The translations under genes were made by a program, and so were the position numbers. The notes under the pieces are model-generated. The model made no database searches and was not told the DNA's origin. It worked only from the letters and a program-made list of their open reading frames with translations. A DNA stretch of 64,000 nt from Plasmodiophora brassicae (lineage: Eukaryota), in contig CP145414.1 in the NCBI GenBank assembly GCA_036867785.1, positions 620,001 through 684,000 on the forward strand. Reading direction: 5' to 3'. This document shows positions 1 to 35,653 of this stretch, one piece after another; within the stretch, counting starts at the first letter, position 1, and each line of letters begins with the position of its first letter.

Positions 1-1438
1 AGGGCGATGGGTCTTTTACGTAAAGACGCCGCTTCGGAAGCTGTCCTTTCGTGCCAAGCATGCGGTGGCCCTATGCGAGTGGCTTCACGGTACGTTCAGT
101 CGCTTGGCACATGGGCGACAGGTCGGCTTATGCCCTTAATGAACAGAGATCCAGCAGACCATCAACCAGTGCAGGCAGGAAGCCGAACTGGCCAATGCAC
201 TGAAGGCGGGAATGGAGGCGGCAAGCGCAGCGGGCGACCGTCCCGTAAAGCCGACGCATCGGAAGAAGCAAAGTCTTCTGTCGACGATCCTTCGAGGGCC
301 CCAGCATCCGCTGGATGCCAAATCGGTCCCGTTGCTGGAGGGCAATGGCGAAGCGAATTCAGCGACGCCGACGACAATGGACATTGCGATGCACCTGTCA
401 CATATTGTCGACCTTCGCGTGGCCGGGTACACCGTCGACCATTGCATCGAGTCGGAGCCGGCCATGAACGTCTTCGTCAAATTCCTGGATGAGTCCGAGG
501 AGCGCTGCCTGCTGGAATGCCTGATCGCCATCGACAAATGCATTGCAACGATACCGATCGATCCAGCTGCTGCCAGACAGCTTGTCGATACGGTCGGAGT
601 CATTGTCGTCCTCGCTCGCTCGCTCTCATGCATCCTTTGCACAGTTTGTATCAAACGGGTCGCCCGATCAATTGCCCCATTTATCGCCGGAGATGGCGTC
701 GGCGATCGAACGCGACGTCCTTGGGCAGGCGAAGATTCCAGTGACGGTGTTCGACGATCTTCGCCGATGGGTCTCGCCGAAGGTCGACCAGCTGTTTGGC
801 AAGCTGAAACGGACGGCACAGTTCCGCGCCATGGTGCAACGAGAGGTTGGCGATACCGATTCCGCCAGCCACGACTTCAACAGTACGCCATGCCGTTATC
901 GCACCATGTTCGGGCTGATCTAATACGGCTGTTACGCATCAGACCCTGTCGATATGGAGCTGGCGTTGCAGATCTCGGTGAAAGGCGAATCGGGCCACCA
1001 GACCTTCGTCCTTGACAGCAAGGCGAACTCGATTACGATTGGACGGGATCCGAGTAACGACGTCATTCTTAGTGATAAGCACGTGTCCAGGTCCCATATC
1101 CGCATTACGTATACGAAGAAACGTACGCGTTGTACCCAACGACTGGCTCTGCTTCCCACCACTGAACAACAACGATGTGATCAGATGCGGAGCTATTCGA
1201 TTTGGGGTCATCAACGGGTGCGACCGTCAACGGCGCCAAGACGCAGCACTGTGCCCTGGTGCCCGGCGACGTCATCGTGATCGGCATAACGTCCATCAAG
1301 TTCGATCTGTACGAATCGCGCGTACGACGCGGCTCCCGATTGGTGTCCGAGATGTTCAGGCGCATGGGCGGCTGGGAGTCGTCCCAGACGAGTCAGGACC
1401 CGCAGGATCGACCCGACAACAATGCGGGTAGTAATTAA
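1..1438 (+). CDS. PH-RGS-FHA multidomain signalling protein, paralog 1 (5' end lies outside the window)
   Basis: Removing GT-AG introns 90-146, 593-644, 883-942 and 1123-1184 gives one frame. It reads: PH C-terminal end (GRWVFYVKTPLRKLSFRAKHAVALCEWLHEIQ), RGS-like region (GYTVDHCIESEPAMNVFVKFLDESEE...FVSNGSPDQLPHLS...VFDDLRRWV), then FHA (ITIGRDPSNDVILSDKHVSRSH...FDLGSSTGATVNG). Colinear with the gene at 33040-35653. Confidence 0.75.
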
Positions 1439-2976
1439 ACACGGCAAGCTTGTCCAGCACCTGCGTCGAAGCGTCCAGCGCGGACTGCCCCACGATACGC
1501 TTGACGGCTGGACGATGGGTCCATCGGTTCGGATTTCGGCTCTCGGCCGGGAACTTGCGGACGGCCCCAGATTTCAAATTGGGCCCCTGTCGTACAGGCA
1601 CTCGTGGAACGCCGCAGGAGGTCATTCATTCCCAATCTACGCAGAGGCACGAGAGAGGACGATTGGACAGCAACCATGAGCGACAAAGGTACGAATACTG
1701 CTAGCCAAGGAAGTGGTGGGACGACATCTGGAGGAGCGGCAAGCGGCCAGAGTGCCGGTCAGGGTCGCGGTGGAGGTGGCGGTACCCATCAGACGTCGGG
1801 TGCTCCGGGTTGCACGGGCGCCGGGTGGCCATCCACAACCGGGAACCCGTCGTTGTCGGTCCGTTGCAGCGCCTGAATGCAGACAGCCGCCTGTTGAATA
1901 CACAACTAGTTCCCGCGTTACATACGTCATTGTACGATGCTTCGGCGTGCTCTTTCACAGGTCGTGATTACCGATGCCGTTTATCTCGTACGTTGTTTCC
2001 TGTAACAGAACGAGGAACCCCCTTGTTGGGTGTAGACCGCTTCGGGTATCGTAACTGGTGCGTGATGAGGACTGGGCATCGCCGATGCTGGGCCAGTTTG
2101 TATCCCTCCGATTTGCTCGTCTCCAACGGATGGAAGGCCACGGTCTACCCCAGCAAACGACCTTCAATATGCAATCGTATATTGCAACCCTCTCTGTGCT
2201 CGTCACGTTCCAGACTCAAGATGTCCATCAAATTTTATGAATGGGTAAGACATGCATTGCCCGAACCTGTCGTACGGGCGGATGTTCCCAACACGCCCAA
2301 CTGGTTGAGCCCCACGCGCTTGACGAGCCAGGGACATGCATGGGAATGGATTCCAGTGGCAGTGCGATCCTCGTGCATCTGCGAATGCCCCCCATGGGCC
2401 AACAGGACGGGACCCGGAATCGGTCTCCCACCTCATGCTTGGGCGCGTTGCAGTGCAGAACGAAACTTAGTATCCTAGCCGGGTGATGAAGACGTGCTGC
2501 AGTACTCCAATATTTCAGCGAACAACGTGGGCTGTTTGAACAGCCACACCGATGACGGGACGAATGTGAATGTGATATGTTTCGATCTCAACGTAAATGG
2601 CGCACTTCACTGTGACGCGTCTGGTTCTCCAGTGCACCAGCTCATGTTGTAAATTCCCGTGCAGGATCGTTGCTTGCAATGGCCGCAGAATTCCTTAGGC
2701 GCTCGCGACCGCTTGGGCTGATCTGCATTCTTGGTTGCTTTGAGAAGCCTGAGCGCATAGCGTCATGGACGGTGCCATCGCCGACCAGATCAGCAATAGG
2801 AGACGCAGGAGGTGTCGGACGAGCCGTGATCGCAACAGTGCCACCTGTGGTACTGCGAAGGGGTGAGGTAGGCGACCGACCCATCGGTGACGCGAGAAGC
2901 CTTTGGGGACCGGGAAGCAACGGTGGAAGCGTGGAGTGCCTGGCTAATGAGACCAGGGTAGGAGCGCGATCGTCAC

Positions 2977-3973
2977 TAGCACGAGCCTTCTGTTCGGCAT
3001 AGCGATACTGGTTCAGATCGTCGGAAGGGAACAGCAATGGGAGCCGCAGCTCTGCGCCCATCTTCAATGGCGCGGTTACGTGTCGTTGCCTGCCGAAGTC
3101 GCTGCCGGTCGTGTTGTGGTAACGACGTCTGAACGGCCTTTGCCTGCCATTTGGTGCGGTACGCCTTCAGCTGAACGTCCGTCTTTCTGAAGCCGTCCAC
3201 ACCATTTGCCAGGCCGTTGAACATACCGGCGATCTAGAAACTGGCATGCGCAGACTTATTTGTCAAAGCGAGCACAGCCCCGTCGAAGCGCGCGTTCAAG
3301 ATCAATGTGCACTGACAGAACTGGAATAGTCTGTTGCAGACGCTGTGCAACGAATTCGGTGCACCCACGTAACGGTGGTAGTGGTTCTGGGCACTTCTCT
3401 TCCAGTGATCTCTTGGTCAGGCGACCGACGCCTTACTGATCCACCGCTGGACGCATATTCGGATAACAGAACCCATTTCGTGTACGCCAACCGGCCAGTG
3501 AGTATGTGTTCAGCGGTGGACCTGTCGCCTGACCAAGAGACCAATGGAAGAGAAGTGTCCGGAACCACAACAACCGTTGCGTGGGTGCGCCGAATTCGTT
3601 GCACAACGTCTGCAACAGGCCATTCCAATTCTGTCAGTGCACACTGATCGTGAACGCGCGCTGTTCGACGGGGTTGTGCTCGCTTTGACAAATGGATCTG
3701 CGCATGCCAGTCTTTCCTATGTTCAAGGGCCTGACAAATGGTGTGGACGTCTTCAGAAAGACGGACAGTCAGCTGAAGGCATACCACACCAAATGGCAGG
3801 CAAAGGCCGTTCAAACGTCGTTACCCTCACACCTCCGGCAGCGACTTCGGCTGGCAACGACACATAACCGCGCCATTGAAGATGGGCGCAACGCTGCCAC
3901 TCCCATTGCTGCTCCCTTCCTCGACCACCTGAACCACCATCGCCACTTCTCCCGCAGAACAGCGGGCGCGTGC
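2977..3973. repeat. Long imperfect inverted repeat (foldback): arms about 2977-3460 and 3500-3973, loop about 39 nt
   Basis: The reverse complement of 3523-3650 aligns almost base-for-base with 3300-3425 (e.g. gtgcactgacagaa, gtgcaacgaattcgg, cacttctcttcca, tctcttggtcaggcgac). Both arms encode near-identical peptides (NGVDxFRKTDxQLKAYxTKWQAKAVQTSLP). Confidence 0.95.
2977..3973. pseudogene. Two head-to-head pseudogenised copies of a transposon-like ORF fragment
   Basis: Reconstructed peptide ...QAIPILSVHTDRERALF...FNGLANGVDVFRKTDSQLKAYHTKWQAK. The left copy has an in-frame TAG near 3235 and the right copy a frameshift near 3715. From memory the motif resembles the C-terminal region of DUF6729-type putative transposon proteins; not verified. 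Confidence 0.4.
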
Positions 3974-4418
3974 TACAGGCTTCGGGCTCCATTATTCGCA
4001 ACTTGACGGTTTGATCTTTCAAGCGGTCCATCTCCGAAGTCCGAAGCCCAGCTGCGTGCTGACAGCTCGGCTGTTGTCCGAAGTCAAGTGCGAGCAAAAA
4101 AATGGAGGATCCGGTAATCGAAACCGGGACCTCGTCGTTGCTAACGACGCGTGATGACCAACTACACCAATCCCCCTGCGGCTGTCCGAGGATCCACTAG
4201 TTGCCAATGATGTTATATTAATCCGTGTGCCTATCGATAACGATAACAGGAGCGCCGAGAAAATTGATATGGCCTGCTCCCTGTTGCCATCTCCGCTTCA
4301 GGTACAGTCTGAGGCCCGGTCGGCGAATTTGACCCCATCTTGTTCGGACAGGTCGACCTGGGGCGATTCCGGGTGTCGCGGATCTGCGCTGCAGACAGAT
4401 ATTACCGATGTGGGGTCG

Positions 4419-7400
4419 ATGACAACAGGCCATGTTCTGCGCGACCTGCAAATCGAGGCCGAACGCGTGCTGCTGTCGCCGACCAGCTCGCAGGGCGAGC
4501 GATGGGGCATCTACAGGCGCCTTATTGCCGCCTTCGACGGCGTCCAGCACTGGTGGTGCCAGCACGGCCACCTGGCCCGATTTCTGTACGGCCATTCTCG
4601 TTGAATCGCTATCAATCCGGCACTAATCGCTGCTGTTTGCCAGGGCCGGCCTGCTTGAGTTCCCTGGATCCGAACCCTGGGAAGCGTTCCAGACGCAGCT
4701 GGCACGATCAACGTGCCTGGCCTGCGTATCGGCGTGGTGTTCGCACGCGAACGCGTTTCTGGTCGGACTATCCCAACGATACGAACAGGATTCCATCGAT
4801 CTACTCGAGGAGCACATGCTCGCTGCAGATGTGTTGCGATTATCTCGCGCTCCTCGGGAGGCGGTCGTCTTCGAGGCCCTGCGACGCGTTCAGTTGCTTC
4901 GAGACGCCGGCCTGTACGACGCGGTCGTCCAGTTACTGCTCGAACGCCTCAGGGAAGCCGGCAGCATGGACGCTGTTATTTCAGACGACTCTGACGGCAG
5001 CCTCCTGCCTGGATCGTTCGTGCTCTGCGTGAGCCCGTTCGCTGTGATTCGCACGCTGGCGCAGAGCCTGGTCAGGTCGCGTGTCATACACGTCCCTGCG
5101 CTGGTCGTCGCGCTTCGAGAGTGTCTACTGCTCGCGAGGCGATTGCCGCCGGCTCGCCACCTGCCTGTACCCGAACGTGGCTCTGCCACTGCATTGTGGA
5201 GTGGCCTCTCCGTACTGCTCTCAGTTATGCCTGACGACGGGTGGCCCGCGTATCTTGATTCAGCGCCTTCCGTTATGCCTAACTTCGTAGAGCAATCGGG
5301 CCTGATCGACACATCTGACCCGGACCGTTGTGCGTTCCTGGCAAGGCGAGAGGATTGTGCCGGTGAAGAAGTCTTCGTCCCAATCATGTCGTGCCTGAGG
5401 TCGGTGCTGTCGAACGTGCCCGATTGTTTCTGGGCGAGCACCACGGTCCCTCCTGTTGTCGTCGACGACGCTCTGCGACATGCCGTTGAGTTTGGGCGTT
5501 CGTCGTCCACGTTGTACCTGTCGGTGTCGGCGGTTTCTGTGATCCCCAGTTGCATTGTCGCGATGCCGCCGACCCTGGTTGAAACACGCGCCGTCTCAGC
5601 ATTGCATTTCCTTGTCCACCACATCGAATCTACTGAACAGAGACGGCTCCAAGATGCTGCACGGTCCTCACTACTTGAATTGCTCTCATTCCTGTTCGAT
5701 TCACGAGGATCTGGCTCACCTGGGCCGGCCCTGAAGGTCGCGTCGCGATGGATCTCTCACGTTGCCGCCCTTGTCACCAGGGACGGTATCGGGCAACAGG
5801 ACGACGTTGTGCGCAACAATGCCAGTATGGTCTTGGCCAGGGCCATTGACGTCAACGGTGTGGCCACTAGTGCCGGATTCAGTGGGAGAGCATCGGCGGC
5901 GACGTTACCTGGAACGCCTGTGATCTGGATCGCGCTGTCGGACGTCCCCGCGGAACAGTTCCCTCCTCTGGTTCATGCGGCGCTTCTTCGTGCGGTTCGC
6001 CAGTGCCTAGCCATGCCTTCGTTCGCGCTACAATTGCAGGTCTCCGCACCCGAGTCCCAGGCATCCATCGATGTCATGTCGCGAATGGCACAGACGTACC
6101 TTGGGCAGGTGGCGACGTTCCCAGATTGCATTAGTGCAGTCACCCGGGACTTTCCATCAGCCATTGGGGACGTGCTGGCGTGCCATCTGTTCTTCCACGA
6201 GTCGTCGTCAGCGTTAAGCAACATCATTCGAATTGCTGCCATGGGCGCCGCCACAGAGTCGCCTGTTCCAGAGTGCCTGGCCGTTCTACTGAAGAGTCAT
6301 GCCGCCGTCATGGGTGAAGCCGTCAACCTATGTGCAACTCTGTGCTCGTCTGACAATGTACACGCCGCGTTGGACCTGCTGATCGGCGCCCGAGGACCAT
6401 ACCTTCTCGACGTGCGCCGCATGCTGTTCTGGATGGACAAGCTGATGTCCTGCTCGATTGAGAATGACAGCAACGAGGTTATCCTTGGAAAGCTCCTCAC
6501 GAAAGACAAAGTATCGAGGTTCTGGTCACTCGTTCGTCGATTGCTGGACACTGGTCCCGACTTATCTGACGTTGACAACTTCGACAGCGCGTTCTCTGCT
6601 GTGTTCGATATTGCCGTCACGATGCTTGACCTGTACAAGTCTGGCTTGATTCCGCCAGATGGCGTTGCACCTGTCGCCGCCAGCGTCCTTCGTTGGCTGG
6701 CTATGCGGGACCGGTTGCCAACTGGTGTTCGCCGACGATGGTTCCGGTTCCTGCGAGCGCTCATGCGGTTGTCGAGCGAGGCGCGCGAGACAATGACGAA
6801 AGGTCTGTCGTCGCACCAGTCCGATGTCAGATGGTATTACAAGGAGGGCGCCACTGAACAGTCCCAGAAGAATTTCCTCGTTCATATCCTTCCCGATCTC
6901 GCGCCGTCGTGGACGGCTTCCAGTCTCCCAACGACATCCGCCCCTGTCGGAGAGCCTTCCATGGCCAAGCCGGTGGCTCTGCCGAGTGCACCGCCACCAC
7001 CGGTGATCGTTCGTAGGAAGCCATCGATGGACTCGACCCTCCTGGACAGGGCGTGGCTTGAAGCAGAGGCCACGAACGGCTGCAGTCGATCGTCCACTGT
7101 CAGCGCTGGCGGCGGTCATCACCAGAGAAACCCGGGTGCCTTTCGAGAGGCGTTCCAGTGGATGCGAGACGATGCCGTCCAGGTCAAGGGCAACAAAGAC
7201 GTGCCGGCGTTAAGCATCAGCGATTCGAAACTACGGATGGTGCAGGCGTCCTTGGCGGAGCAGGCGGCTCAGGCTCGGAAACGGATTGTAAAGAAGAGCT
7301 CGTCGTCAAGCGCAGCGGTCGTGGCAGTACCATCGCCGCCCCGCCCGCCGTTATCCCTGGAATCGCCGAGGCACTTGATCGAACTCGTTCTGGCAACGCA

Positions 7401-10068
7401 TCCTGTCGACCTGTTGGTTCGCCAACCACCGCCGGTGACGAAGGAGCGTCGAAAGGCGAAGGTTCCTACGTCGTTCGAGGCGATCTGGGACTACCGGGAA
7501 CACTTCGGGGCCCTGATTGTCGAAGAATGCCGGGCGTCGATTTCGTCGGATTTCAGCCTTGCCAGTAAGCAGGACGGTCCCATCGTCCTGTGCCCGCAGG
7601 CAATCGACAAGGCGTCCCAGGCGTTGCTGCCGGGGGTTGCCGTCCTGTTCTCGTTCGTAAACGCCTCTGACAAGAGAATGAGCGACTTCGCCGAATCCGA
7701 TATCGCTATAGTTTGGCCTGAGGACCGAGCAGCGTCGTCAACGCCCGACGATTGGTCGTTCGTTCAGTTCGCCTACGTCGAAGGGCGCTCCTCAAATCGC
7801 ATTTCGTTTCGTGTCTCGCGAGCGCCACCCGACCTGACGGAGCCCACCTCGGCGTCATCGACATCGAAGCCACGAAAGTACTCTTGTATTCGTATTGCAT
7901 CTATGACCACCTCTCTTCGCCAAGCTCGAGCCCTGGAAACTGTCGGACGGTTTCGGCTGTCTTCGTCGTTGGTGGTGGCCGCGAATAGTCAACCTCCCGC
8001 TGGGGTTCCACTGACGTCTGCGACATCCGGTTTCGCCGTACCGCCTACATTGAACAAGGTTCAGCAAGAAGCGATCGAGCATTGTTTGACAACGACAAGT
8101 CCGATAGTTCTGCTGCAAGGCCCTCCTGGCACAGGCAAGACCACAGTGATCGTCGCCCTCATCCAAGCGATCCTTGGGCTGTGCTCGGCGCCCGACGAGG
8201 ACGCAGCTGGTGATCGAACAAAGCGCACTGGCTGGCGGAAGGCGTCGTCAAAGAAGGACCTGCCGCATATCCTCCTCTGTGCGCCATCGAATGCGGCAGC
8301 AGATGAACTCAGTTTGTACCTGTGGCCGCATTGTGTAACCCTGAGCGCCTAACGAACGTGACAGCTTGCCGCCTCATCTCGGCCAACATTCAAGGGTTCC
8401 CCAGCGGCAATCCTTTCCCCTTGATCCGTCTGGGTAATAGCGTGAAATCTTCGCACCATATCAGGGCTCTGCTGACCGTGTGTGGCCTCCTCCAGGGAAT
8501 CAAGGTGACAAAACTTCGTCGGCGTATTCGGTTTCTCTGGAGAAGCTGGTTGGCACCGTTGCGGCCACCCGGGTGCGATCCGGAAAGCAGGAAGTCCAGT
8601 CGAAGAACTCGGAGACGGTGAACCGGCCCGAGTCGTCCGTCAAAGTGCTGCGCCAAGAGCTTCTTTCGAAAGCGAACATTGTTGTGTGCACGCTGTCTGG
8701 AAGTGGGAGCCCTCTGCTATCCAACGTCGCGCATGGATTCCACACCGTGATTGTCGATGAGGCCGGCCAGGCCGTTGAACCTGACTCGCTCGTTCCCCTT
8801 CAATACTCGTGCCGCAAGCTGATCCTCGTTGGTGACCCCAAGCAGCTGCCTCCAACGGGTCCAGTATTCACAAGCCGGCAACTGTATTCGTGTACTCATT
8901 CCTGCGTTCTAGTTATATCTCAGGCGGCAGACGCGAAGGGCTTGAGTCGGTCTCTGTTCGAACGGCTTGAACCTGTGTATCCCCCCGTTATGCTCGTCCA
9001 GCAGTATCGCATGCATCCGCAGTACTGTCCACCTCGTTGCTGTCCCAGCTCGTCAATGTACTCAGATCGTATCGCACAGGATTTGCTCTTTCCCCTCGGA
9101 ACAGTTTTATGGAGGTCGCCTCGTCACTGCCATTGACAGGCCGCCTGCTGCGTTCCACGGCGACCCGTTCGTCGTCCCGTATGCCTTCTACGACATTGCC
9201 GGCAATGACTTCCAGGTCGGGTTGTTCACTAGGGGTCGTGATGCCGTCCACGTTCTTAACGTGGAACGATTCAGGTTGGGCAATCTAGAGCCAACAGGAC
9301 GGAGGCCGTCTTCATAGTCAAGCTTCTAGCTCATGTCAACAAGATCTTGCGGGGCCGTGCACAACCGTCGATTGGAGTCATAACGCCATACCAGGCGCAG
9401 GTTCGTGAGGTGTGCCAGCAGGCCGATAAGTTGAACCAGCAGCGACCCGACGTCCGCACCATTGATAGTTTCCAAGGCCAGGAGCGCGACGTTATTGTGT
9501 TCTCGGCCGTTCGTGCCTCGAATGCCGACGATCACGTCAGCGCCGGTCTTGGTGCGTTAGATGCCACCGTTAGCCGCGACGGGTCTGATTGCTTCCCTGC
9601 TTAGGGTTTGTGGCCGACCCGCGTCGACTAAACGTTGCCCTAACGCGGGCGAAGCAGAGCTGCCTCATTGTCGGCTGCGCTGCAACGCTGGCAGCGTCGA
9701 ACCACGTCTGGAGGAATCTCGTCGACGACGCCTACAGACGGTCCGCCGTCTTCCGAGTTGACCCCAAGGTTGACATGCGCGTCTGTATGAATTAGTCGTT
9801 CGCTGAAAGCATCGTGCAGGACCTGGATGGCTTCTTTAGGTCGGCACCTGTTGCCGCCCGGCAGAAGCGAAAACGCCCTGCGAGCGGTAACGAACGACGA
9901 CAGAAGCGGGTCGTCGCTCCGAGCGAGAGCCGGGATCATGGTCGTGCGGCGCCTTCAGCGCCGGTACCGGCACGTATACCAAGGAAGGACCCTGCCGCTC
10001 CGACGTCGTCAGCGACTGCGCGTACCGTGTCCAGCTTCAATCTCGACGATATCCTATCCAGCATGTAA
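4419..10068 (+). CDS. SEN1: Sen1/senataxin-like superfamily 1 RNA/DNA helicase
   Basis: N-terminus with HWWC and CLAC motifs like the Sen1 N-domain. Helicase motifs QGPPGTGKT, ILLCAPSNAAADEL, VIVDEAGQ, LVGDPKQLPPT, SLFERL, QYRMHP, IGVITPYQAQ, TIDSFQGQE and RRLNVALTRAK are spread across exons. Confidence 0.9.
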
Positions 10069-10300
10069 CCACTGTCCATACCTGTCGTTGTGCATTTCCC
10101 AGTCGGTCGATACTATTTCTACGAGTCCATAAGGCGCAGCCCCAATATACAACGTTCGTTCTACCTGCCTACATAGTGTGGCTCGACCGGATGACTCGAC
10201 CCAGGCGCGCCCACCAGTTGTCGAAATATCCATCCTGGGAGATCCCTGACGGCTGGGCACGCGCATGCTGCCAGCCAGTTGCCATTTCGTCGGCGCACGA

Positions 10301-11334: not shown

Positions 11335-11422
11335 TCCGGCGTATAATAACAACCCCCGCCATAATATTGGTGACACGACGTTCTGGACGCACGCAAACAA
11401 GCAGCAGCGTCGTTGTCGGGTT

Positions 11423-13567: not shown

Positions 13568-13760
13568 CGACGCCCAATCCCCAAAAATGAACGACGACGA
13601 CGACGACGACGGCGCGCGTGCGACTCCGAAACGTCTCCTCCCGGGGCAGCACCCACCGGATCACCCTTGCATGTACCTGTCGGCGGCCGCAGATTCTACA
13701 CAGAGGGATCGCTGCGTACGCTTGGGCGGGGCTGACGAACCGTAATTAGGCAGCAACAGC

Positions 13761-15012
13761 ATGAAGGCAGCGCTCGTCGTCGTCGTTGTCGTCGTCGCCG
13801 TCGCTGTCTGTGCAGCGCAGAACGAGGTCGTCGTCGACGCGGCGAATGGGGTGACGCTGTCGTGGACGATTGTGAACGGGACGGTGACGATGTCGGTCGC
13901 GGCAAAGAGCAATGGATACGTGGCGATTGGGTTCTCGGCGACCGGCGACATGGTCGGCAGCAGCGCCGTGATCGGTTGGCCCGGCAACGTGAAAGAGTAC
14001 ATGCTGAACGATAAGACTGTCGACGGCATCGTCCCTGTCAGTGACCCGATTATCCACGACGCGAGCGCCACCCAGGCTGCAGGTACACAGCCTCCGCCAT
14101 GTGACCCGGGTTGCCGTTTCACATTCCACAACGAACTAGGCACCTTGACGATGACGTTCTCGCGGCCGCTCGCCTATCCCGCCCGTCCGATTCGGCCCAG
14201 CGGACGTCAGAGTATGATCTGGGCGATACACCCGACGTACCAGGGCTTGATGCAGCACCAAGGCCATGGGTCGTTCGAGATTGACCTGGCGACGGCGTCG
14301 GTCGCGTCAGGGCCCTCCAGACTTCGCATTATTGAAGCCCATGGTTCGTCGCGGAATCGCAGCCCAGACGAATCGTCGAGCCAAGTGACACTGTGCAGGC
14401 TTCATCATGTGGACCGCGTTCGGCGTGCTGTTCCCGATCGGGATGCTGTGTGCCCGGTTCATGACCAAGGTGACCAACTCCTGGTTCCGCGCCCATCGAA
14501 TGCTCCAGGTCACTGGCACCGTTCTAGTCATCGTGGCGCTGTTGCTGGCCATCGACTACTTTGCGTCTAGCGGCCTGGACCACTTCTCCAGTACGATAGG
14601 CATCCGTGTGCTTCGGCGGTACGTTCGCTGACCCGACCTCTGAACAGGTGGCCACCCTCAAGCCGGAATCTGTACGTTCGCTATCCTCCTATTCCAGGTC
14701 TTCGTCGCTGCGATACGTCCTCATAAGGGTGCGCGCCTTCGCAAGCCTTGGTTCTTCGTGCACGCCTGGCTCGGCCGGTTCCTGTTCATCTGGGGACCCA
14801 TCCTGGTCTACTCGGGGCTTCTGACGTTCAACAGCCTGTTCGGGTCGGCCATGATCCCACTCCTCGTTGCGCACACGATCGTGACCGCCCTCATCTGGAT
14901 CGCTGCGTTCATGCTCGAGCGGCAGCGACGCCGTCTTCGCACGATCCAGTTCGCGACCGACAGCGGCGACGCCGCCCAGCAACACAACGTCAACGCCGAT
15001 ATGCAGATCTAA
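13761..15012 (+). CDS. DOMON + cytochrome b561 (CYBDOM) protein, copy 1
   Basis: Signal peptide. DOMON region GYVAIGFSATGDMVGSSAVIGW...TMTFSRPL...MIWA...MQH. b561 helices with His ligands (AHG, WFRAHRMLQ, HP, VHAWLGR). Confidence 0.88.
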
Positions 15013-15307
15013 CCAGGGCTGTGCGCGCTCGCTCCTCCCCACGTATGCACCCCTACTCCAATAAACAACTTCCAATCGTCACATCGTCGGCTGTGGTGTG
15101 ACCACGAACAAGCCATTCATTTGCTGTGACGAAGGGGGTCTCTGGCGTGCCCACGAAGGCCGCAGCCGGGCCTAGGCCCATGGGCTTTAGGGTTGCGTTG
15201 CCACTTGCCGGTCGATGGGCCACCTGGATCGACCGCTTGAGGGTAAAGGTACTATCCAGTTGTCGCTGTCCATAGTGGATCAACTGGAGTAGAGCGATCG
15301 CCTAGCG

Positions 15308-16512
15308 ATGGGGTTCCACGTGTTGTTCATCGTAGCCGGCATCGTCTGCGGGGCATCCGGCCAGGGCCCGCTGCTCGTCGACTCGCCCAGAAATGTGGTG
15401 CTGTCCTGGTCGGTCGGCAACGGATCGCTGACAATGTCGGTGTCGATGGATGCGGGCGGGTGGGTCGGCGTCGCGTTCTCCCCCGACGGGAACATGGTCG
15501 GGAGCCATGCCATCATCGGCTGGCCCAGCGGCGTGTCCGGCAACATACAGGAGTACTGGTTGCAATCGCAACAACCCAATGGCGTTGTGCCCGTTAGCGA
15601 CCCGATCTTGACTGGCGCCTCGATAACCGTCAGCGGGGGTCGGTGCCATTTCGTCCTTCGCACTGGTGTTGACCGTTAACGGAATGTGCAGCAACGATGA
15701 CGATGAATTTCACAAGGCCGCTCGAGTACCTTGGACGACCAATCACGTTGTCGGGCATGCAGACCATGTTGTGGGCGATGAACATGCAAACGCGTGGCCT
15801 CGTCCGGCACGATTTCCGGGGGGCGTTCCAGATCGATCTATCGTCGGGCGTCAGCGCTGCCACATCTGCCAGAACCCAGCTGATCGCAGCGCATGGTCGG
15901 GTGAAGGGTTATGTATCGTCGGCCGTTGCTCAACCGTCCCTAGGGGTTCTCATGTGGTTCGCCTTCTGCGTCTGCTTCCCGTTGGGTGCGATGTCGGCCC
16001 GATACCTAACGCACAGCAACCTCAGGTGGTTCCATGCGCACCGCGTCCTCCAGGTGACGGGCACGTTGCTCATGTTGGTGGCGTTTGCGTTGGCCATATC
16101 GTACGTGCAGCAAGCCGCTGGATCCCATTTCGCAAGTAGGCCAAATCGGCACTGGTCGATGCACACCAATCTCACTGAGGCGTTCGCAGCATCGCACCCG
16201 CTTGCTGGGCTGTGCACCATTGTCTGCATGTTCGTCAATTTCCTGGCGGGCCTCAGTCGACCTCATAAGGAGAGCCCATGGAGACGGTCGTGGTTCCTGT
16301 TCCATTCCACGATTGGACGTTGCGCGTTTATCTGGGGGCCCTTGATGGCGCTGTCGGGAATTCTGACATACCAGAGCCTGTTTGGGGATTCAATCCTGCC
16401 GCTGCTCTACGTGTACGTTGTCGTCACACCGATTATCGTTCTGATAGCCATTACACGCGAGACTTTGCGGTCCCGAGCAACAAGGCCATCTGGCGTCGCG
16501 ACACCGCTATGA
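15308..16512 (+). CDS. DOMON + cytochrome b561 (CYBDOM) protein, copy 2 (tandem paralog)
   Basis: GWVGVAFSPDGNMVGSHAIIGWP, MNFTRPL, AAHG, WFHAHRVLQ, SHP and FHSTIGR, colinear with copy 1. Confidence 0.88.
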
Positions 16513-23946: not shown

Positions 23947-24269
23947 CGGCGGGCAACGTACCGCTCGCAGTCCGCGCGCGCCAGACGTTTCTGGCACTCC
24001 GACTCTGACAACAAGACCTGTACGGCGGGCAACGACGATGCCGTTGCCTAGCTCCGCTTTCGTCTACCCGTTACTGTCAACCGGCTGCGCACCACAGTAC
24101 GAATTGGGGCCAGGGTCAGCACCCACTACAGTACTGTACTGCGGTTCGATTTCACGTCACATGCAGTAGCGACGTGCAGGAGAGGATGCAATTCTGGATG
24201 TGGCGACGACACGGAGGGTACGCACGGGAACCGGGAAGGAGGAATATATTAAGCAGGGCGGGAGAGACC

Positions 24270-24521: not shown

Positions 24522-24954
24522 CGCCGCGCCTGCTCTGACTAGGACGTCCCCGTTCCCGAACGCAGTTGGTGTCGAGTTGGCACGACAGATTGCGTTGTAG
24601 GTCGGTGGCGGACCTTCACCAACGCCCAATCTGACTCGCCGCTATTTTCGGCCACTGCTCGCCCGCTCTGCAGTGCAGCTCAACGCCTGCGAAATCGCCC
24701 CCGCCCCGATTCCGCCACTGGGGCCGCTGTTGCAAGCGAGATTATGCGCGTCGCCGCCACTGGGACAGAAAGTCCGCCACAGTCATCGTGTTCCGTTCCG
24801 ACGGGGGCTATTCCGGGCCGCCTCCGCTAGACATACCTCGCTGCCGGCCAAGAAGGTCGCCAAGTTCGCTCCACCTGCAGATCGTCGGTACGGATGGCGA
24901 ATCGCGCGTGCCTTGCATGGATATTTGCTGGTAGTGAGGCGAAGGCGTCGGTCG

Positions 24955-27354: not shown

Positions 27355-27409
27355 ACTAACCGATTGTGTACTACGAATGCGACAACGCGCGTTGCCGCCA
27401 CCCTGCTGA

Positions 27410-27800
27410 TCATGTGGCCGTGCACGCCCAGACGGCAAAGTGCAAAGTTGTGCCCCGATGTACAATAATATAGCGAGTACTCCCGGCGCGGATTGGGAAC
27501 CCAGTCGTCGGAACCTGTCTTGACGGCCACGGTGCCCTTTCCTGCGTGAACGTAGGCCGCGTACAGGCCATGGCGCGCCACGTCGATTTACAACGACGAC
27601 ATCGACGAGGTTCCGGTTGACGCTCGCACACCCATCAATGCCTGGACCGGCTTTCATTCGTAGTCATTCTGCACGCGACGACGACTGTGATCAGAACCGA
27701 CCACCTATGCGCAATGTGTCGTGTACCTCCCAGTCCTTCCAGAAGATGAACGGCGGCGTGCCCAGGTGGGCCAGGATGTCGGCATAGCCTGGCTGCGGCC
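27410..27800 (-). pseudogene. Degenerate copy of the alpha-amylase 3' end
   Basis: Encodes VARHGLYAAYVHAGKGTVAVKTGSDDWVPNP, matching the amylase C-terminus at 31374-31620. Contains indels and has no 5' part. Confidence 0.85.
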
Positions 27801-28254
27801 GTCCTGCACCGAACGTTTTCTAGTCGATCCTCGACTCGCACCAGTTGTTGGCCTCCGAGTTTCGGTCGTTCGCGGCCCCGCGCCAGGACCAATGTCGCCG
27901 TCGTCGCCTCGTGAACCGAAGACGTAGCCGTGGGGCAGGGGAACCGTGCAGACCTTTGCAAACGGAAGCCAGGATCCACGGCATCATCTCAACATCGCGG
28001 GCTTTGCCACGTCATCATGGAGAGATACGACCGTTCAGGCCCCCTTTTTCCATTTAGGTATTCTTGGGCGTTGGCCGTTGGGCGCCTATGTAGGTATCTG
28101 TAGGCCGGAACCAGACCGGAGTTTGGAACAACTCCGCCCGGCATGCGGCAGCCGGGGCGTAGCCCTGGGGCCAGACCGATATCGGACCTGTCGTACGAAC
28201 TGTCTCGGTGTCTCCCCCTTCCGCGCTCGTGGACCAGCAGGCTCCCGACCCGGA

Positions 28255-29239
28255 ATGTCCATCTTACGGCATGTGTGTGGCCAAATCATTCCTAAGGCGC
28301 GCACATTAGTGCTGCTGGGGATCCTGAATATGGTTTTAAATGTCACTGGCGATCACATTACTCTTCGATCCGCCAATGGTGAAAGCTTCAAGTTGCCTTT
28401 CGACACTGTACTAAAACACTGCCGTGCCTTTCGCCCTATCCACGCAAGGGAGGTCGATGGACGCTACGTTGACGCCGTATCACCTCCCCAACATCACGAC
28501 GTTACGTTCAATTCGAACGAGTTGGCCACGCTGGTGAGCGTCATGCAGAACACGGTCGATTTTGGTATTGCAGCACCTGACCACAGTGGTACTGAAGTTG
28601 CTTGCGATTGCACAGGCGCCATTCGTCGAGGATGCCGGGCAGTGGGTCGTTACCGAGCTGAACAACAAGGTTCTTTTCTGGACCCGGATCCCGCGGATCT
28701 TGTCAGCTGCTCGTGAACTGAAGATGTATTCGTTCATTGTTGCAATTGGACTATATGTTCCGTTGCCACCGACTGGGCAACCCGTGCTTGAATCGCTCGA
28801 CAGCCTGCTTAATGAAGACCGGAGACAAACAACGTTCTACGTTAATGGCATCGTCCAGAATTCCCCCAGGTAAAGTTCCGCGCTGCAGTCGACTCGCACA
28901 ATGTCGTCTCATACCGTCTCCAGGTGCGGATTAGGATGCCGGGATGAATATTCTCGTGACAACCTGCCCATGGAATTGCCCTGCCGCCACACGTTCCACA
29001 CTGCATGTGTCATCGATATGTTGGGCCAGCACGGCTGCTGTCCATTGTGCGGGCGCCCGATCATGGACCCGGATGTCATGGCTCAAATCCGAACACGCAC
29101 TGTCAGAGATGTTACCGCCGTCAAGATGCACCAAATCGTACAAGTTGAACACAGTTGGCAAAAGTGCTACGCGGCCATCTTTTGTGGGTCATGTAGACTC
29201 GTGGCCGCTTTGCCCGCCACCCGTTGCAGTTCTTTCTGA
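28255..29239 (+). CDS. Predicted secreted Skp1/BTB-like + RING-H2 protein, copy 1 (candidate effector E3 ligase)
   Basis: Signal-like TLVLLGILNMVLNVTG. HITLRSANGESFKL and RILSAARELKM resemble Skp1/POZ motifs. Introns 28555-28615 and 28870-28923. RING CGLGC...LPCRHTFHTACV...CPLC. The 3' end is uncertain. Confidence 0.75.
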
Positions 29240-29401
29240 ATACACGGCACTACCAACTTGTGGGTTTTCGTTCATCGCATTGCAGGCATCTGCACACGGG
29301 CACTCCTCTCCGGTGTCGGCGGAGACGTGTCTCCAATGCCAGACCAGATGTCTCCCGTTCGTCAAACCCATCGTGTACTGAGAATGCGAGAAACGCGCAT
29401 T

Positions 29402-29810
29402 GGCGCCGCCCTGCTCATGTGGCCGAGCGCACCCAGACGGCAAAGTTGTGCCCGGATGTATACAGCGAGTACTCCAGGTGCGGACTGGGGATCCAGTCGT
29501 CGGAACCTGTCTTGACGGCGACGGTCCCCTTTCCTCCGTGAACGTAGGCCGCGTACAGGCCATGGCGCGCCACGTCGATGTACAACGGCGACGTCGACGA
29601 GATCCCGGTTGACGCTCACACATCCATCAGCGCCTGAACCGGCTCTCGTACGTAGTCACCCTGCACGAGACGACGACAGTCATCACAGTTTTCACGTCAC
29701 CCGATGTACCATGTACCGTGTACCTCCTCCCAATGCTTCCAGAAGACGAACGGCGACGTAAACCGGATGGGCCAGGGTGACGGCGTAGCCTCGCTGCGGC
29801 CGTCCCTGTA
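29402..29810 (-). pseudogene. Second degenerate copy of the alpha-amylase 3' end
   Basis: Near-identical to 31374-31640 (cttgacggcgacggtcccctttcctccgtgaacgtaggccgcgtacaggccatgg). Truncated upstream. Confidence 0.85.
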
Positions 29811-30263
29811 CCCAACGTTCCAGTCGGTCCACGACTCGCTCCAGACGTCGGCATTCGTATTCCGGTGGTTCGCGGCCCCGCGCCAGGACCGACGTTGACG
29901 TCGTCGCTTCCTGAACGCGAATTGCCGTGGGGCAGGGGAAAGTTACTGTCGTCCATAGCGTGTCCCTCATTCCATTGCAAACAGAAGCCAGAATCCATAG
30001 CATCTTCTCGACATCGCCTGCCTTGCCGCGTCGTCACGGAGACAGTACCTCCGTTTCACACTTCAGGCCCCCTTTTTCCATTGATACTTGGGCGCCTATC
30101 TATAGGCCGAACGGCGAACACAGACCGGGCTTTGGAACAACTCGGGCGGCATGCGGCAGCCTCGGAGAACAGCCCGGGGGCCAGATCGATATCGAACCTG
30201 TCGTAAGAACAACGAGCAGGTGTCCCCTCTCGCGCCCGACTACCAGCAGGCTCCCGACCAGGA

Positions 30264-31318
30264 ATGTCCACCTTTCGGCGTGTCTGTGCCCATACCAGGC
30301 CTAAGGCGCGCACATTAGTGCTGCTGGGGGTCCTGATGGCTCTTACTATCACTGGAGATATACCTGATCATTGTACTCTTCGATCGCCCGATGGTACAAG
30401 CTTTACGTTGCCCTTCGAAACTCTAGTGAAACACTGCCGTGCCGTTCGCTTTCGCGTTGCCCACGATAACCAAGTCGGCGGACCCACTGGTACCGTACGC
30501 CATCCCGAACCCGAACCGTACGACGTCTCGTTCAGTTCCGACGACTTGGCCACGCTGGTGAACTTCATGCAGAATACGGTCGTTTTCGGCATTGCAACAC
30601 CTGACTACAGTTGTACTGAAGATGTTTGGGATTGCACAGGCGCCATTCGTCGAGAATGCCGGGCAATGGGTCGTCGCCGAGCTGTACTACAACCTTCATT
30701 TTTGGACCCGGATCCCGAGGATCTTGGCAGCTGCTCGCGAACTGAAGATGTATTCGCTCATTGTTGCAATTGGACTATATGTTCGGCTGCAAACGACTGG
30801 GCGACCCGCGCTTAAATCGCTCGACCGCCTGCTCAATGAAGACCGGAGACAAACAGTATTCCACGCCCATGGCCTCGTCCAGGATCCCCCCACGTAACGT
30901 TCCGCGCTGCAGTCGACTCGCACAATGTCGTCTGATACCGTCTCCAGGTGCGGAATACTGGAATGCCACGATGAATATTCTCGTGAAAATATGCCCATCG
31001 AATTACCCTGCCGGCACACGTTCCACTATTCATGTGTCAGTGATTGGTTGTGGCTGCACGGCTGCTGTATATCATGCGGGCGCGCGATCATGGACGAGGC
31101 GAACATGGCTCAAATCCGAACACGCACTGTCGAAGGTGTAACCGCCGTCAAGATGCGTCGAATCGAACACGTTGTAAACAGTTGGCAAGTGTCGTAGCCC
31201 CGTGGCCTGATTTGTCTCCCGATGCCCGTCGCAGTTCTTCCTGAATACACGGCACAACCAGCTTGAGGTTTTCATTCAGAACGTTGCGCGTCCCCCGTTC
31301 GTCAAACCCATGGCGTAA
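30264..31318 (+). CDS. Predicted secreted Skp1/BTB-like + RING-H2 protein, copy 2
   Basis: TLVLLGVLMALTITG signal, HCTLRSPDGTSFTL and RILAAARELKM. Same intron positions as copy 1. RING CGILEC...LPCRHTFHYSCV...CISC. The putative last exon after intron 31189-31234 ends RPPFVKPMA*. Confidence 0.75.
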
Positions 31319-31373
31319 ACTCTAACCGATAGTGTACTAGGAGAACGAGAAACGCGCATTGAGGCCGCCCTGC

Positions 31374-32849
31374 TCATGTGGCCGTGCGCACCCAGACGGC
31401 AAAGTTGTGCCCGGATGTATACAGCGAGTACTCATGTTGCGGATTGGGGATCCAGTCGTCGGAACCTGTCTTGACGGCGACGGTCCCCTTTCCTCCGTGA
31501 ACGTAGGCCGCGTACAGGCCATGGCGCGCCACGTCGATGTACAACGGCGACGTCGACGAGATCCCGCTTGATGCTCGCACATCCATCAGCGCCTGAACCG
31601 GCTCTCGTACGTAGTCATCCTGCACGAGACGACAACGGTCATCACAGTCCGCGTCACAGGTGCGCAATGTGCCCTGTACCTCCCAGTCCTTCCAGAAGAC
31701 GAACGGCGTACCCGGATGGGTCAGGATGACGGCGTAGCCTTGGACGATCTGCGGCCGGTCCCCGAATCGGTCGTCGCGGGCCGTGTCGTGGTTGTCGAGG
31801 AACGTGCAGGCGTAGAGCGAGTTCCTGGAAACGATCCCGGTGAACTTCAACCAGGAGTAGTCGTTCGACGTGACGGCGCTCTTCAGTTCGGAACGGTACG
31901 GGAAGTCGAACGCGGACGATTGCTGCTGGGCGCCCTGGATCCACGCCCAAACACGGTCCGTGTCCGACCACACCTCGCCGACCGAGAATTCGGGTTGCGA
32001 ATCGCGAACGTACTCGGCATTGAACCTGGCGTCATACCTGCTCGTCGCTGTCACCGGCCTGCTCTGCGTCGTGTTCGTTGCAAGTTACCCGATTGCCATG
32101 TCGAATCGCCAGCCTTTGAACCCGACCGACTTCAGCCAGTGCAGGTACTCCTTGACGAGGCGGCGAACCTGACCAGAAACAGGTTCAGCAGCGGGGCGTT
32201 CAACGGAGCGAGCATTGCGAACCCCATCGTTCGTATGGTCCAGGTCGGGAGACGGGCAGAAGTTATCGCCGGTATCGAAGTTGCCACAGCCGCAGTCGCC
32301 CTGGCAGAACCTGTCGCCGCTGTTGCACTTGTAATCGTCGGCGACGACGGCCCAATTGCCCATGTCCGGCTCCTGGAACGCGGTGCTAATGTGCATTGTT
32401 ACGAAAGCCCACCAGGTCAGCAGCGCACGCGCCCTACTATTCATGAGTGCACGGGTCGACGTGTGGTGCGCCACGATGATTGATGACGATGTCAGCGACG
32501 CCGACCATGCCGCGCGAGTTCATGTCTTGAAGAAGAGCGACGAGCGAGTCGTGGTCGACCAGGCGGTACCATCGCTGAGGAATGTATCCTTGCGCGTCGA
32601 CCGATTCCGACTGGGGCGGCAGCCAGGCGCCATGGAACCCAGCGGACGCCCAAGACGAGACCTGAGCAGGCCGGCTCGTCAAAGACGCAGGCCGGACGTC
32701 GCTTGCAGCGCGCTCACCTGGGTCTTCAGGTACCGCATATGGCCAGGCCGATCGGAGATGGATTCCCAATCGAAGGTCTGAAGGTAGACCTGCGACTGGG
32801 CGATGACCACCAGGAGGGAGACGGCGACGACGGCAGGCGCCAGCGACAT
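31374..32849 (-). CDS. Secreted alpha-amylase (GH13, plant-type)
   Basis: Signal MSLAPAVVAVSLLVVIAQS, QTFDWES, WLPPQSES...GYIPQRWY, ADIVINHR (region I), GWRFDMAIG (region II), VGEVW (region III), TFLDNHDT (region IV) and GYAVILTHPGTPFVFW. Confidence 0.93.
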
Positions 32850-33039
32850 CCCCCGTGTGGAACAACGATATACGAATGACGGGCGACGCCGGTCCCCTCC
32901 ATTGGTCGCTCCTCGTTACCCAGGGGCCGATACTGTCTGACTGTCTGCCGGGTGACGAACGCGGGCACCCGAGTTGCGACATGTGCCTTTCGTAAGGGTT
33001 GTGGCCCGCCAGGGGGGCGGGAGGCAACCCCATGTTAGT

Positions 33040-35653
33040 TCATTGGGATTGGGGCGCTGGCGAGGTGGCGGCCGTGCCTGACAGCTTCAAGCTGAGACGA
33101 CGGAACGTGTTCACAATCTTCTGCCCGATGTTCTGCTTCGGCTCGACGTGCGACAGCCTCAGGACGAAGGTCATGTTCCCGATTCGGACGGTGTCGTTCA
33201 ACGACACCGGTGCGTAGTGGACGCGGCTGCCGTTGACGAAGGTGCCCGATGATGATCCTAGGTCGAACACGTCGACGTTGGTGCGCGTGTACCCGAACCT
33301 GGCATGTGACCTCGACACGTCTGCGCTTTCCTGGACCAGGACGTCGCAGGAGTAATCGCGCCCGATCGTCAGCGTGTTGAGCTCGTGCGGGAACCCAACG
33401 GTGATCGGGGGGTGTTGGTGCCCGGTCGTCGACGAGGACGGCAGCGTCAGGACCAGGCTTGGCATCTCCAGTTCGATGTCATCTGCACGGGCGTGTTGAG
33501 AAAGCCGCAAAGGAGAACCTATCGACACCGACTTGGGAACGATGCCTGTTTCGGGTCGATAGGAAGCTCGGCGCTAGCCAGTTCACACTTCATGTAGTGG
33601 TGGAACGGTTTCGTTCGCCTCAGCTCCTCGAAGCACCCTTGCATTGTGGCACGAAGCCAGTCCCAGACCTGGAACACGCAGATCAGACCTCAGCGTTTGG
33701 TCTGACCGTGACGTCTACTAGACCGGCTCCAGGACATCGGCGTGGATGGGCGTGCCGCTTGACGCTGCTTTCATCAGGTACGATGCAATCGCTGCGGGAT
33801 CGGCGCCGGCCAGTGGTGTTAGCGCGTCCCTCGCGAAGAACCGTTTGTACAGATCGTGAAGCAGAGCAGGACGCTGTTCGTCATCGACGGATTCGTCCTG
33901 GAATTGAACGCAGGCCGCCATGACTGACATGGTTGATCACACAACGAGGCCCAGACAGGAGCGACATGTGGCTACTGACTCTGGGAGAGCGCCAAGCGGC
34001 TTGTATCTCGTAGAAACGTCAGGAATAGTTTTCGACCGTTCGGCCTGGCCATGAGCTCATCGACTGTGTACCCCGACTCCCTCATCGATGCGATCGCTTC
34101 GAATATCCGCCTGAAGCAATCGTTTAGAGGTGAAGCCGCCGAACGCAAACGGACGTTCGTGTAGCAGACAATGAACGGTCTGACTGAGATTCGTGCTTGA
34201 AGGTGACAGGGTCGTTCTCGAGCAGGGGTTCCTCGGTCGGGGTGTTTAGCAGTTTGCCATTGCCACCCCGGATGAGCTTCGTGAATGTGCTCATGCGTTT
34301 CGCGTGCGGTCGTCGATTGAAGCTCGATGATCGGCGGCGTTCCCGTTCGAGTTTCTCTTGGCGGCACCGGATCAGAACCGCCTCGATGGCCGCCATCCAT
34401 TCGCACAACGCGATGGCGTGTGGCATGCGAAGCTCGATCGAACGCAGGGCCGTCTGAATGGACAGCATGAATCGCCCCTTTCGGATCTCGTCCACGACTA
34501 GTGCCACCGTTGCAAGGTTCATGTTGAAGAACCTGGCGCACACGGTTCCTCATTGGGTATAGGCGACCAGAGGCGACGGCGTTTACGATATGGGTTCGTC
34601 AGCGGATTCGTTCTCGAACCAGTAGAGCGATTGATCTGAGCACACGTCGTTGGCACCGACATATGCTGCCAGTCAATGAATCATTACCATGGAGGACGAA
34701 CCAATACGTTCGGCCACGCCTGTCGGCGTCCGTCGGGGCGACCATCTCCAGGTGACCCGTGATCAGCTTTGAGAAGCTCTTCTGCAGAGATACGTCCATG
34801 GCGACGAGTCCTGCGGGTGACAGTTTGTCAACCAATACCGTTGTGGTCAACGGGGTACCCACCCGCATCTGACAGCACTTGTCGCATACGCAGCCGGCGC
34901 TGTTCGAGGACGTAAAATTGGTCGCTGTCGGTAATCGTTAGCGTTGTAGTGATCGTTGACGCGTCGGTATCATACCGAAGCATTGGCATGGCTTGTACCG
35001 CGGCCTGCGTTTTCTCCTGCCAGAGATCATCGCCGAGCAAACGTCGTAGGTCAGTTTCGACGGCCCTGACGAAGGCGGCCTTCGTGGGCTCATCTGGGCA
35101 TTTCAAGATGACGATCTAACGCGCAGGTCAGCAAGGGGAACTGCGACGAAATGACCCTATAACGAACCTGGTCGTTCGTCATGATCTTGATGACGTGGGC
35201 CGCCGTCTCGAACTCCAGGTACACCTTGTAGTCGGCGTCGTGTGCGGGCAGCTTGTCGTCGTCGCCTCCTTCTTTGCTAGCGTCCGCAATCGAGTATTCA
35301 CTCGGCAGAAGAAACGCAATGCGGAAGGCGCCAGTGTTGCTGGTGTCCTCCTGGCGTGGGCGATAGTACAGCACGTTGTTCGAAACTTCAACGTGGGACG
35401 TTTCCCAAGCGCACCCGGCCACGAAGTTGAACGACGTCGGCAATTGCATCTCAAGAGTGCCGAAGAAAACCGGCGTCTGCGTGTAGCTGAGCTTCTTGTT
35501 CGGCGCTGTGTGGTCCGGCAGGTACCGCAGCGTTTCAAGCATGTTCATCGTTGAGTCGTCCATGGACGACACCGAGTCCATGGTCGTCTCGACATCCGGT
35601 AGCGATTCGAACGCGGCATAGCTGATGTCCGTCTCCGTCGTCATGCCGGCCAT
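33040..35653 (-). CDS. PH-PH-RGS-FHA multidomain signalling protein, paralog 2
   Basis: PH1 FFGTLEMQ...WETSHVEVSNNVLYY...AAFVRAVE. PH2 ITGHLEM...YWFVLHG...LRMPHAIALCEWMAAIE. RGS-like GYTVDELMARPNGRKLFLTFLRD...LYKRFF...VWDWL. FHA LTIGRDYSCDV...VSRSHARF...FDLGSSSGTFVNG. The RGS and FHA exons are joined in frame by GT-AG introns. Confidence 0.78.

Follow-up and report, generated by a model that had tools for sequence, protein, structure and literature searches.

Do two distant loci of Plasmodiophora brassicae each encode one protein that unites PH-like, RGS-like and FHA regions, or do the open reading frames seen there belong to separate genes? The question arises from a window of 64,000 nucleotides (nt) of this organism, i.e. 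the whole stretch of DNA analysed (GenBank assembly GCA_036867785.1, contig CP145414.1, positions 620,001 to 684,000). It contains the two loci referred to here as gene A (2-1438, +) and gene B (35653-33040, -). All coordinates are positions in this 64-kb window, and + and - are given relative to its forward strand. A preliminary description, made from the sequence, had treated both loci together in the span 1-35653, which also includes about 31 kb of unrelated genes lying between them. In the reading that we prefer, and which we rate at a probability of roughly 0.65, each gene encodes one predicted polypeptide. It would consist of a beta-rich N-terminus, a basic Ser/Thr-rich linker, a divergent helical domain with RGS homology (about 135-140 residues) and a canonical C-terminal FHA domain.

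Splice models were read from the sequence at both loci, and the short GT-AG introns were removed by script. After splicing, gene A forms a single open frame of five exons and 401 codons ending at the stop codon TAA (1436-1438); its 5' end lies beyond the window edge and the frame is already open on entry. Gene B likewise forms a single open frame, running from the ATG at 35653 to the TGA at 33042-33040 and comprising nine exons and 730 residues. The introns measure 57, 52, 60 and 62 nt in gene A (n=4) and 52, 28, 52, 54, 74, 56, 55 and 50 nt in gene B (n=8). All 12 have GT-AG ends, and 11 of them fall within 50-74 nt, the exception being the 28-nt intron 2 of gene B. Retention of any of the 12 leads to an in-frame stop or a frameshift. 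These models bear out the claim of the preliminary description that short GT-AG introns join the RGS-like and FHA open reading frames in frame at both loci.

The SEN1-like neighbour gene (4269-9879, +), mapped from the public protein P0151, served as a yardstick for the introns. It possesses seven introns of 53-62 nt, all seven with GT-AG ends and with a 5' consensus as weak as that in genes A and B. Codon usage agrees as well: the G+C content at codon position 3 is 0.72 and 0.75 in the two genes compared to 0.43 at position 2, and the annotated neighbour exhibits an equivalent bias (0.67 at position 3 versus 0.49 at position 2). A 542-residue stretch of the SEN1-like frame shows 98% identity to P. 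brassicae P0151, the next best match being a Spongospora subterranea protein with 30%. The exons of this neighbour are 98-99%, not 100%, identical to P0151, indicating that the window probably derives from an isolate other than that of the annotated genome.

Intron 2 of gene B (34811-34862 region, -) allows two forms. A donor GT at 34838 results in the 28-nt intron of the first model, and a GT at 34862, located 24 nt upstream, results in an intron of 52 nt. Both are in phase 1; with the longer form exon 2 ends at 34863 and the product is 8 residues shorter. The 52-nt form is more likely, because only this length fits the local intron size range. The 28-nt intron is one of two features that would be expected if one or both loci were decaying pseudogenes whose frames are open only by favourable intron choice, the other being that no public spliced protein was found for either gene. 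We consider such decay highly improbable: the exon frames stay open over 401 and 730 codons with a strong third-position G+C bias, the pocket residues of the FHA domains are all conserved, and the short intron has its regular 52-nt alternative. Genes A and B are intact, intron-rich, predicted protein-coding paralogues.

The spliced products of the two genes align collinearly over 404 columns with 28% identity (E 4e-36). The alignment crosses four junctions in each gene, and collinearity through these junctions argues for more than chance intron choices. The intron between the RGS-like and the FHA part lies at 883-942 in gene A (60 nt) and at 33532-33483 in gene B (50 nt). Both genes have it in phase 1, within an Asn codon found in one shared column of the alignment (FN-N-PVDMEL in gene A, FP-N-DIELEM in gene B, with the split codon between hyphens). 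The remaining introns in the overlap of A and B are at positions not common to both genes. Further common features are the motifs ALCEW...CRQE and GYTVD...F..FL as well as PLLE, the latter embedded in the basic Ser/Thr-rich linker. Thus the paralogy of the two genes, their same layout, the equivalent position and phase of the junction intron and the three shared motifs were all described correctly beforehand. A tblastn search of the window with both products revealed just these two loci and no third copy.

The shared intron also bears on whether the RGS-like and FHA parts belong to two genes, or whether the junction intron is usually retained; the main products would then be a protein with the PH-like and RGS-like regions and, at best, a small FHA protein of its own. 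Some features of the sequence would suit this arrangement. A Met codon is found within eight codons of both FHA exon starts (DIELEM, PVDM), and reading of the upstream frame into a retained intron would meet a stop within 4 codons of the donor in gene B and within 13 codons of it in gene A. However, the gap between the parts amounts to just 50 and 60 nt, which leaves no room for a promoter, and it has GT-AG ends and a typical intron length. Moreover, the two paralogues, with an identity of just 28%, have it at the same codon and in the same phase, which suggests an intron that is old and functional. Separate products are therefore very unlikely.

The FHA domain is the part of both proteins that was most readily recognized. 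The Pfam gathering score for FHA (PF00498) is 20.7 bits, and exon 9 of gene B reached 56 bits (E 5.5e-15, profile positions 2-67 of 67). An intron interrupts the domain in gene A, where exon 4 scores 32.5 bits (E 1.2e-7, positions 1-30 of 67) and exon 5 scores 19.5 bits (E 1.3e-3, positions 34-67 of 67). GR, SRSH and DLGS..G..VNG are kept in both genes; GR, SRSH and VNG fall in columns that are at least 80% conserved in 40 other FHA segments taken from database matches to the FHA exon of gene B. The residues GR, SRSH (Ser-x-x-His) and Asn-Gly constitute the phosphothreonine pocket of FHA domains. As these residues are conserved in both genes, both FHA domains should bind phosphothreonine. The FHA assignment, made beforehand without any database search, is that of a canonical domain.

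The domain in front of it is more divergent. It is spread over two to three exons (residues ~429-568 of the spliced product in gene B and 111-245 in gene A), and the Pfam, PDB and fold tests were made on single exon pieces. Exon 6 of gene B gave a match to the Pfam family RGS (PF00615) with E 0.23 and 12.3 bits over profile positions 2-23 of 117. RGS was the sole family listed for this piece, and the match covers the profile region expected for the start of the domain. Over 24,736 models, an E of 0.23 would correspond to a per-model p of about 1e-5 for one family named in advance. A profile built from the N-terminal half of the gene A domain and exon 6 of gene B yielded 12 matches against the PDB at E<=10, four of which were RGS domains. 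The top match was the RGS domain of Drosophila CG5036 (4igu_A, E 0.07) over the GYTVD...F..FL stretch; RGS17 (6am3, 1zv4) and GAIP (1cmz) were detected, too. In the Atlas feature search, the N-terminal half of gene A (residues 85-148) led first to an RGS cluster (0.90, 172 shared features). For the C-terminal half (exon 3), 33% of the members of the first-ranking cluster carried RGS (0.92, 188 shared features); 23 of 30 matches fell in this set, and a cluster of the RGS-like family PF09128 was at rank 9. These two halves have no residues in common, and both lead first to RGS.

A further line of evidence comes from the packing of the halves. Submitted to ESMFold2 as two chains, the N-terminal (68 residues) and C-terminal (79 residues) halves of the gene A domain obtained a score of 0.87, compared to 0.02 for the best control. 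Of 78 solved complexes, 51 attained this mark, as did 2 of 108 mismatched pairs; for eukaryotes, 39 of 65 solved pairs that lacked a similar complex in older structures attained it, as did 2 of 126 unrelated pairs. Three runs agreed in at least 99% of the contacts (116-119 contacts), with a predicted local distance difference test value (pLDDT) of at least 88 for the partner and 92 for the other chain; with unrelated partners the same halves reached a pLDDT of 34-50. In the predicted contacts, residue 11 of the N-terminal helix touches residue 64 of the C-terminal helix, and F..FL lies against the long helix of the C-terminal half. Domain halves tend to pass this pairing test via likeness to solved folds, and the result shows likeness and complementarity only. 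According to this prediction, exons 2 and 3 of gene A specify two complementary parts of a single compact helical domain which the model recognizes, the identity of the fold not being proven thereby.

The N-terminal region of gene B includes two PH-like modules; in gene A the N-terminus lies off the window. A PH domain is a sandwich of seven beta strands closed by a C-terminal helix that carries a conserved Trp. In the second module, which is common to gene A and spans four exons, the patterns usual for PH domains, ..YWFVL.., ..LYWF.. and ..ALCEW.., with the Trp in the closing helix, are recognizable by eye in both genes, and a PH domain is probable here. The first module may be described as a beta-rich region at most. 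Between the second module and the RGS-like domain lies the linker (gene A, 185-388, +; gene B, 34351-34110, -), which contains 8 and 12 Lys plus Arg residues, respectively, and 10 Ser plus Thr residues in each gene. Both linkers contain a basic-x-x-Ser stretch in front of (I/L)(I/L)RG, and both contain PLLE and TPT. It is pure inference that these motifs could be kinase sites or ligands of the protein's own FHA domain.

Several results weigh against the domain composition proposed here. Concerning the middle domain, none of the five RGS-region pieces reached the Pfam gathering score for RGS (23.9 bits), and four of the five gave no RGS match at E<=10; exons 7 and 8 of gene B, taken singly, gave no Pfam match. 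Searches of the PDB with single pieces did not reveal RGS domains either (exon 2 of gene A, no matches; exon 3 of gene A, two non-RGS matches; exon 7 of gene B, no matches), and the profile of the C-terminal halves gave four matches, none of them RGS. An AlphaFold2 (AF2) model of exon 3 of gene A alone showed three helices at a pLDDT of 63 and had no Foldseek match in the PDB. The Atlas recognition value of this exon is low (1857, compared to the 2300 reached by 91 of 100 proteins of known families), the Atlas measures being uncalibrated for protein parts. Concerning the N-terminus, Pfam detected no PH domain (PF00169) at E<=10 on any of five PH-region exon pieces, and no PDB match to PH was obtained by sequence or by a two-sequence profile; these negatives are weak, the pieces being short and PH domains strongly divergent. 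The AF2 model of exon 1 of gene B contained five strands at a pLDDT of 33 and is unusable. The PH domains named in the preliminary description are consequently left with a sequence pattern and without support from any of these tools.

Relatives were looked for as well, and protein searches found none for the non-FHA parts of either protein. A word-based search of longer proteins with exon 5 of gene B gave no match, and with exon 2 of gene A the sole match was the unspliced read-through open reading frame P0190 from the window itself. HMMER with the FHA exon of gene B returned 16,333 matches at E<=0.001, dominated by multi-FHA proteins; among the 150 matches listed, none aligned to the non-FHA parts of A or B (local BLAST, E<=1). 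No public spliced protein containing exon 2 of gene A or exon 5 or 9 of gene B was returned, though the protein of the SEN1-like neighbour was. Public annotations may lack genes A and B or contain wrong models of them. That the two genes form a lineage-specific family, as had been proposed, is plausible, its basis being these negative searches only.

The middle region might be a helical domain unrelated to RGS, with the RGS leads reflecting a resemblance of the short N-terminal motif GYTVD...F..FL. Every sequence-level RGS match spans just ~22-28 residues at the N-terminal edge, and the C-terminal half remained without an RGS match by HMMER and without any match by Foldseek. But the Atlas search with the C-terminal half, too, gave RGS first, with most of its matches in that set, and the length of the domain, its all-helical prediction and the tight packing of its N- and C-terminal parts all fit an RGS bundle. 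RGS domains are bundles of nine helices, with the N- and C-terminal helices in contact. An unrelated fold is thus improbable. The leads from Pfam, the PDB profile and the Atlas are individually weak but convergent and, together with the packing score, they indicate that the middle domain is very probably an RGS-homology domain, as first suggested.

Whether this RGS-homology domain acts on G-alpha as a GTPase-activating protein (GAP) is a different matter. CG5036, RGS17 and GAIP, the best matches in the PDB, are GAP-active small RGS proteins. For a comparison of the contact residues we used, as reference, what we take to be the canonical RGS motif after F..FL. In an ungapped hand alignment to this motif, the position of the Glu-Asn pair is occupied by Cys-Leu in gene A and by Ala-Leu in gene B, and the position of the later loop Asn by Pro in gene A and by Ala in gene B. 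That the absence of Glu and Asn rests on such an alignment is a further point on the debit side of our reading. One study reports that a plant RGS protein loses both G-alpha binding and GAP activity when its corresponding Glu and Asn are mutated (PMC11061236). Some RGS domains, as the main text of a survey states, now lack GAP activity and act as scaffolds (PMC3971589).

A catalytically competent RGS domain would speed up GTP hydrolysis by a G-alpha subunit of P. brassicae, with PH domains binding phosphoinositides or G-beta-gamma and the FHA domain gating the activity by phosphothreonine. The RGS leads for this version are identical to those for the reading preferred here, and the best PDB matches are GAP-active proteins. 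It is nevertheless the less likely version and one that we regard as doubtful, given that both the Glu-Asn pair and the loop Asn appear replaced in both genes, that mutation of these residues is reported to be inactivating and some RGS domains to have become scaffolds in the two sources cited above, and that the PH domains are without tool support. Since the G-alpha-contacting residues seem to be replaced in both paralogues, we weakly and only slightly favour an RGS-homology domain that binds G-alpha as an adaptor or scaffold, of the kind present in GRKs or axin, over a true GAP. Of the earlier statement that RGS acts on G-alpha, the RGS homology is very probable and the action is in doubt, a GAP-inactive scaffold being at least as likely as a GAP.

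The function of both proteins is wholly a matter of inference. Most likely, the FHA domain would dock the protein onto a Thr-phosphorylated partner, e.g. a receptor tail or a kinase substrate, with the N-terminal modules and the basic linker holding it at the membrane. The RGS-homology domain would then engage an activated G-alpha subunit. Going further, the FHA domain might make the RGS-homology module conditional on Thr phosphorylation, providing a phytomyxid-specific device that couples Ser/Thr-kinase signalling directly to heterotrimeric G proteins at the membrane. It might even be autoinhibited by binding of the FHA domain to a phosphorylated Thr-Pro of its own linker; TPT, a candidate site for this ligand, is present in both linkers. 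We put this conditional device forward as a speculation with little chance of being right.

How do the two proteins compare to known systems? They resemble small R4/RZ-type RGS proteins such as CG5036 (4igu), RGS17 (6am3/1zv4) and GAIP (1cmz) in the N-terminal signature (G/W)..(V/F)D.L.......F..FL, in domain size and in all-helical character. The small proteins, however, comprise little beyond the RGS domain, whereas the P. brassicae proteins have ~430 residues in front of it and an FHA domain behind, and their domains seem to lack the G-alpha-contacting Glu-Asn and loop Asn according to the hand alignment to the RGS motif. The logic is like that of the GRK2-type kinases (RGS-homology, kinase and PH domains), i.e. 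a probably GAP-inactive RGS-homology domain combined with a PH-type membrane module and a link to Ser/Thr phosphorylation. The GRK RGS domain is called inactive and scaffolding in the main text of PMC3971589. In contrast to the GRKs, which write phosphorylation with their kinase domain, the P. brassicae proteins would read it with FHA, and the domain order is reversed, with the PH-like region first. No homology to the GRKs is claimed beyond the RGS fold.

Fusions of an RGS or RGS-like domain to lipid-binding modules, as proposed here, occur in SNX13/14/25 (PX) and in the RGS-RhoGEFs (DH-PH), both listed as conserved multidomain RGS architectures in the main text of PMC3971589. These proteins carry other accessory domains, none of them an FHA domain, and no sequence relationship to genes A and B was detected. 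According to the same main text, the RGS families of protists, rhizarians among them, radiated independently, each lineage having domain combinations of its own (PMC3971589). Genes A and B fit this pattern of lineage-unique combinations, as described there for Naegleria, Bigelowiella and ichthyosporeans. FHA is not among the partners named and does not occur at all in that main text, as distinct from the supplementary architecture figure. In the literature searched we found no paper on an RGS plus FHA architecture, although broad surveys of RGS architectures outside that search may list one, and no relevant paper on P. brassicae together with RGS, G-protein-coupled receptors or heterotrimeric G proteins. 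We rate genes A and B as a lineage-specific variant of the known, highly promiscuous RGS family. The exons of both genes are compiled in Table 1.

Table 1. Exons of genes A and B and the predicted protein regions encoded by them
Feature	Position	Strand	Content
Gene A, exon 1 (partial)	2-89	+	C-terminal part of PH-like module, ending ...HAVALCEWLH; frame already open at the window edge, donor GT at 90; alignable with gene B residues 331-359
Gene A, exon 2	147-592	+	End of PH-like helix (CRQE); basic Ser/Thr-rich linker (185-388); N-terminal half of RGS-like domain from 389
Gene A, exon 3	645-882	+	C-terminal half of RGS-like domain (end ~845), then lead-in to the FHA junction
Gene A, exon 4	943-1122	+	First half of FHA domain (GR, SRSH motifs); Pfam PF00498
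Gene A, exon 5	1185-1438	+	Second half of FHA domain (DLGSSTGATVNG), C-terminal tail, stop TAA; Pfam PF00498
Gene B, exon 1	35653-35168	-	Start ATG, acidic N-terminus, beta-rich PH1-like region from ~35470
Gene B, exon 2	35115-34839 (or to 34863)	-	Putative last strand and helix of PH1-like region (to ~35032), then Thr-rich spacer
Gene B, exon 3	34810-34688	-	N-terminal strands of PH2-like module (...RTYWFVLH)
Gene B, exon 4	34635-34587	-	Micro-exon of 16 codons, PH2-like module (SLYWFENESADEPI); frame restored only if joined on both sides
Gene B, exon 5	34532-34185	-	C-terminal strands and helix of PH2-like module (ALCEW...CRQEK, to 34352), then basic linker with PLLE
Gene B, exon 6	34110-33980	-	Start of RGS-like domain (GYTVDEL...LFLTFL), 43 residues; weak match to Pfam PF00615
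Gene B, exon 7	33923-33724	-	Middle of RGS-like domain; collinear with gene A across intron 2 of the latter
Gene B, exon 8	33668-33533	-	End of RGS-like domain (to ~33579), then stretch before the FHA junction; alignable with the last part of gene A exon 3
Gene B, exon 9	33482-33040	-	Complete FHA domain (~33411-33154), C-terminal tail, stop TGA; Pfam PF00498

The window is eukaryotic in content, with open frames containing SEN1, Exo84, Brr2/Sec63 and DOMON/cytochrome b561 domains, and an Rfam scan of it gave no matches. Gene B is followed immediately, on its own strand and with almost no spacer, by two pieces at 32085-33039 (-) that contain DIVINH and GWRFD. By eye, these resemble conserved regions of GH13 alpha-amylases; neither piece had a Pfam match. 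The DOMON and cytochrome b561 frames at 13746-16512 (+) lie close together and may be one gene. Three frames with Sec63/Brl and SNRNP200 winged-helix domains at 53229-57156 (-) look like exons of a gene for a Brr2-type spliceosomal helicase. The G+C content is 0.64-0.67 at 44000-50000 compared to ~0.58 elsewhere, and the long + frames in this stretch (44109-45323, 45484-46392 and 46444-47571) had no Pfam match. An open frame at 51538-52290 (+) contains a Kunitz/BPTI protease-inhibitor domain (PF00014, E 6e-13) and could encode a secreted inhibitor in this biotrophic plant parasite.

A routine Pfam scan of the open frames detected only FHA in genes A and B, and short-intron genomes can conceal multidomain proteins from searches that proceed exon by exon. 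RGS domains recombine freely in protists, so that one more combination would be a modest surprise. If the conditional FHA-RGS device were true, it would be an undescribed, reader-based counterpart of the GRK logic. P. brassicae, the clubroot pathogen, is an obligate plant parasite of economic importance, and little is known about its zoospore and host-sensing pathways. In the supergroup Rhizaria, to our knowledge, hardly any signalling protein has been studied experimentally. If real and expressed, the proteins encoded by genes A and B would connect G-protein regulation to phosphothreonine signalling in this supergroup in a simple way that can be tested.

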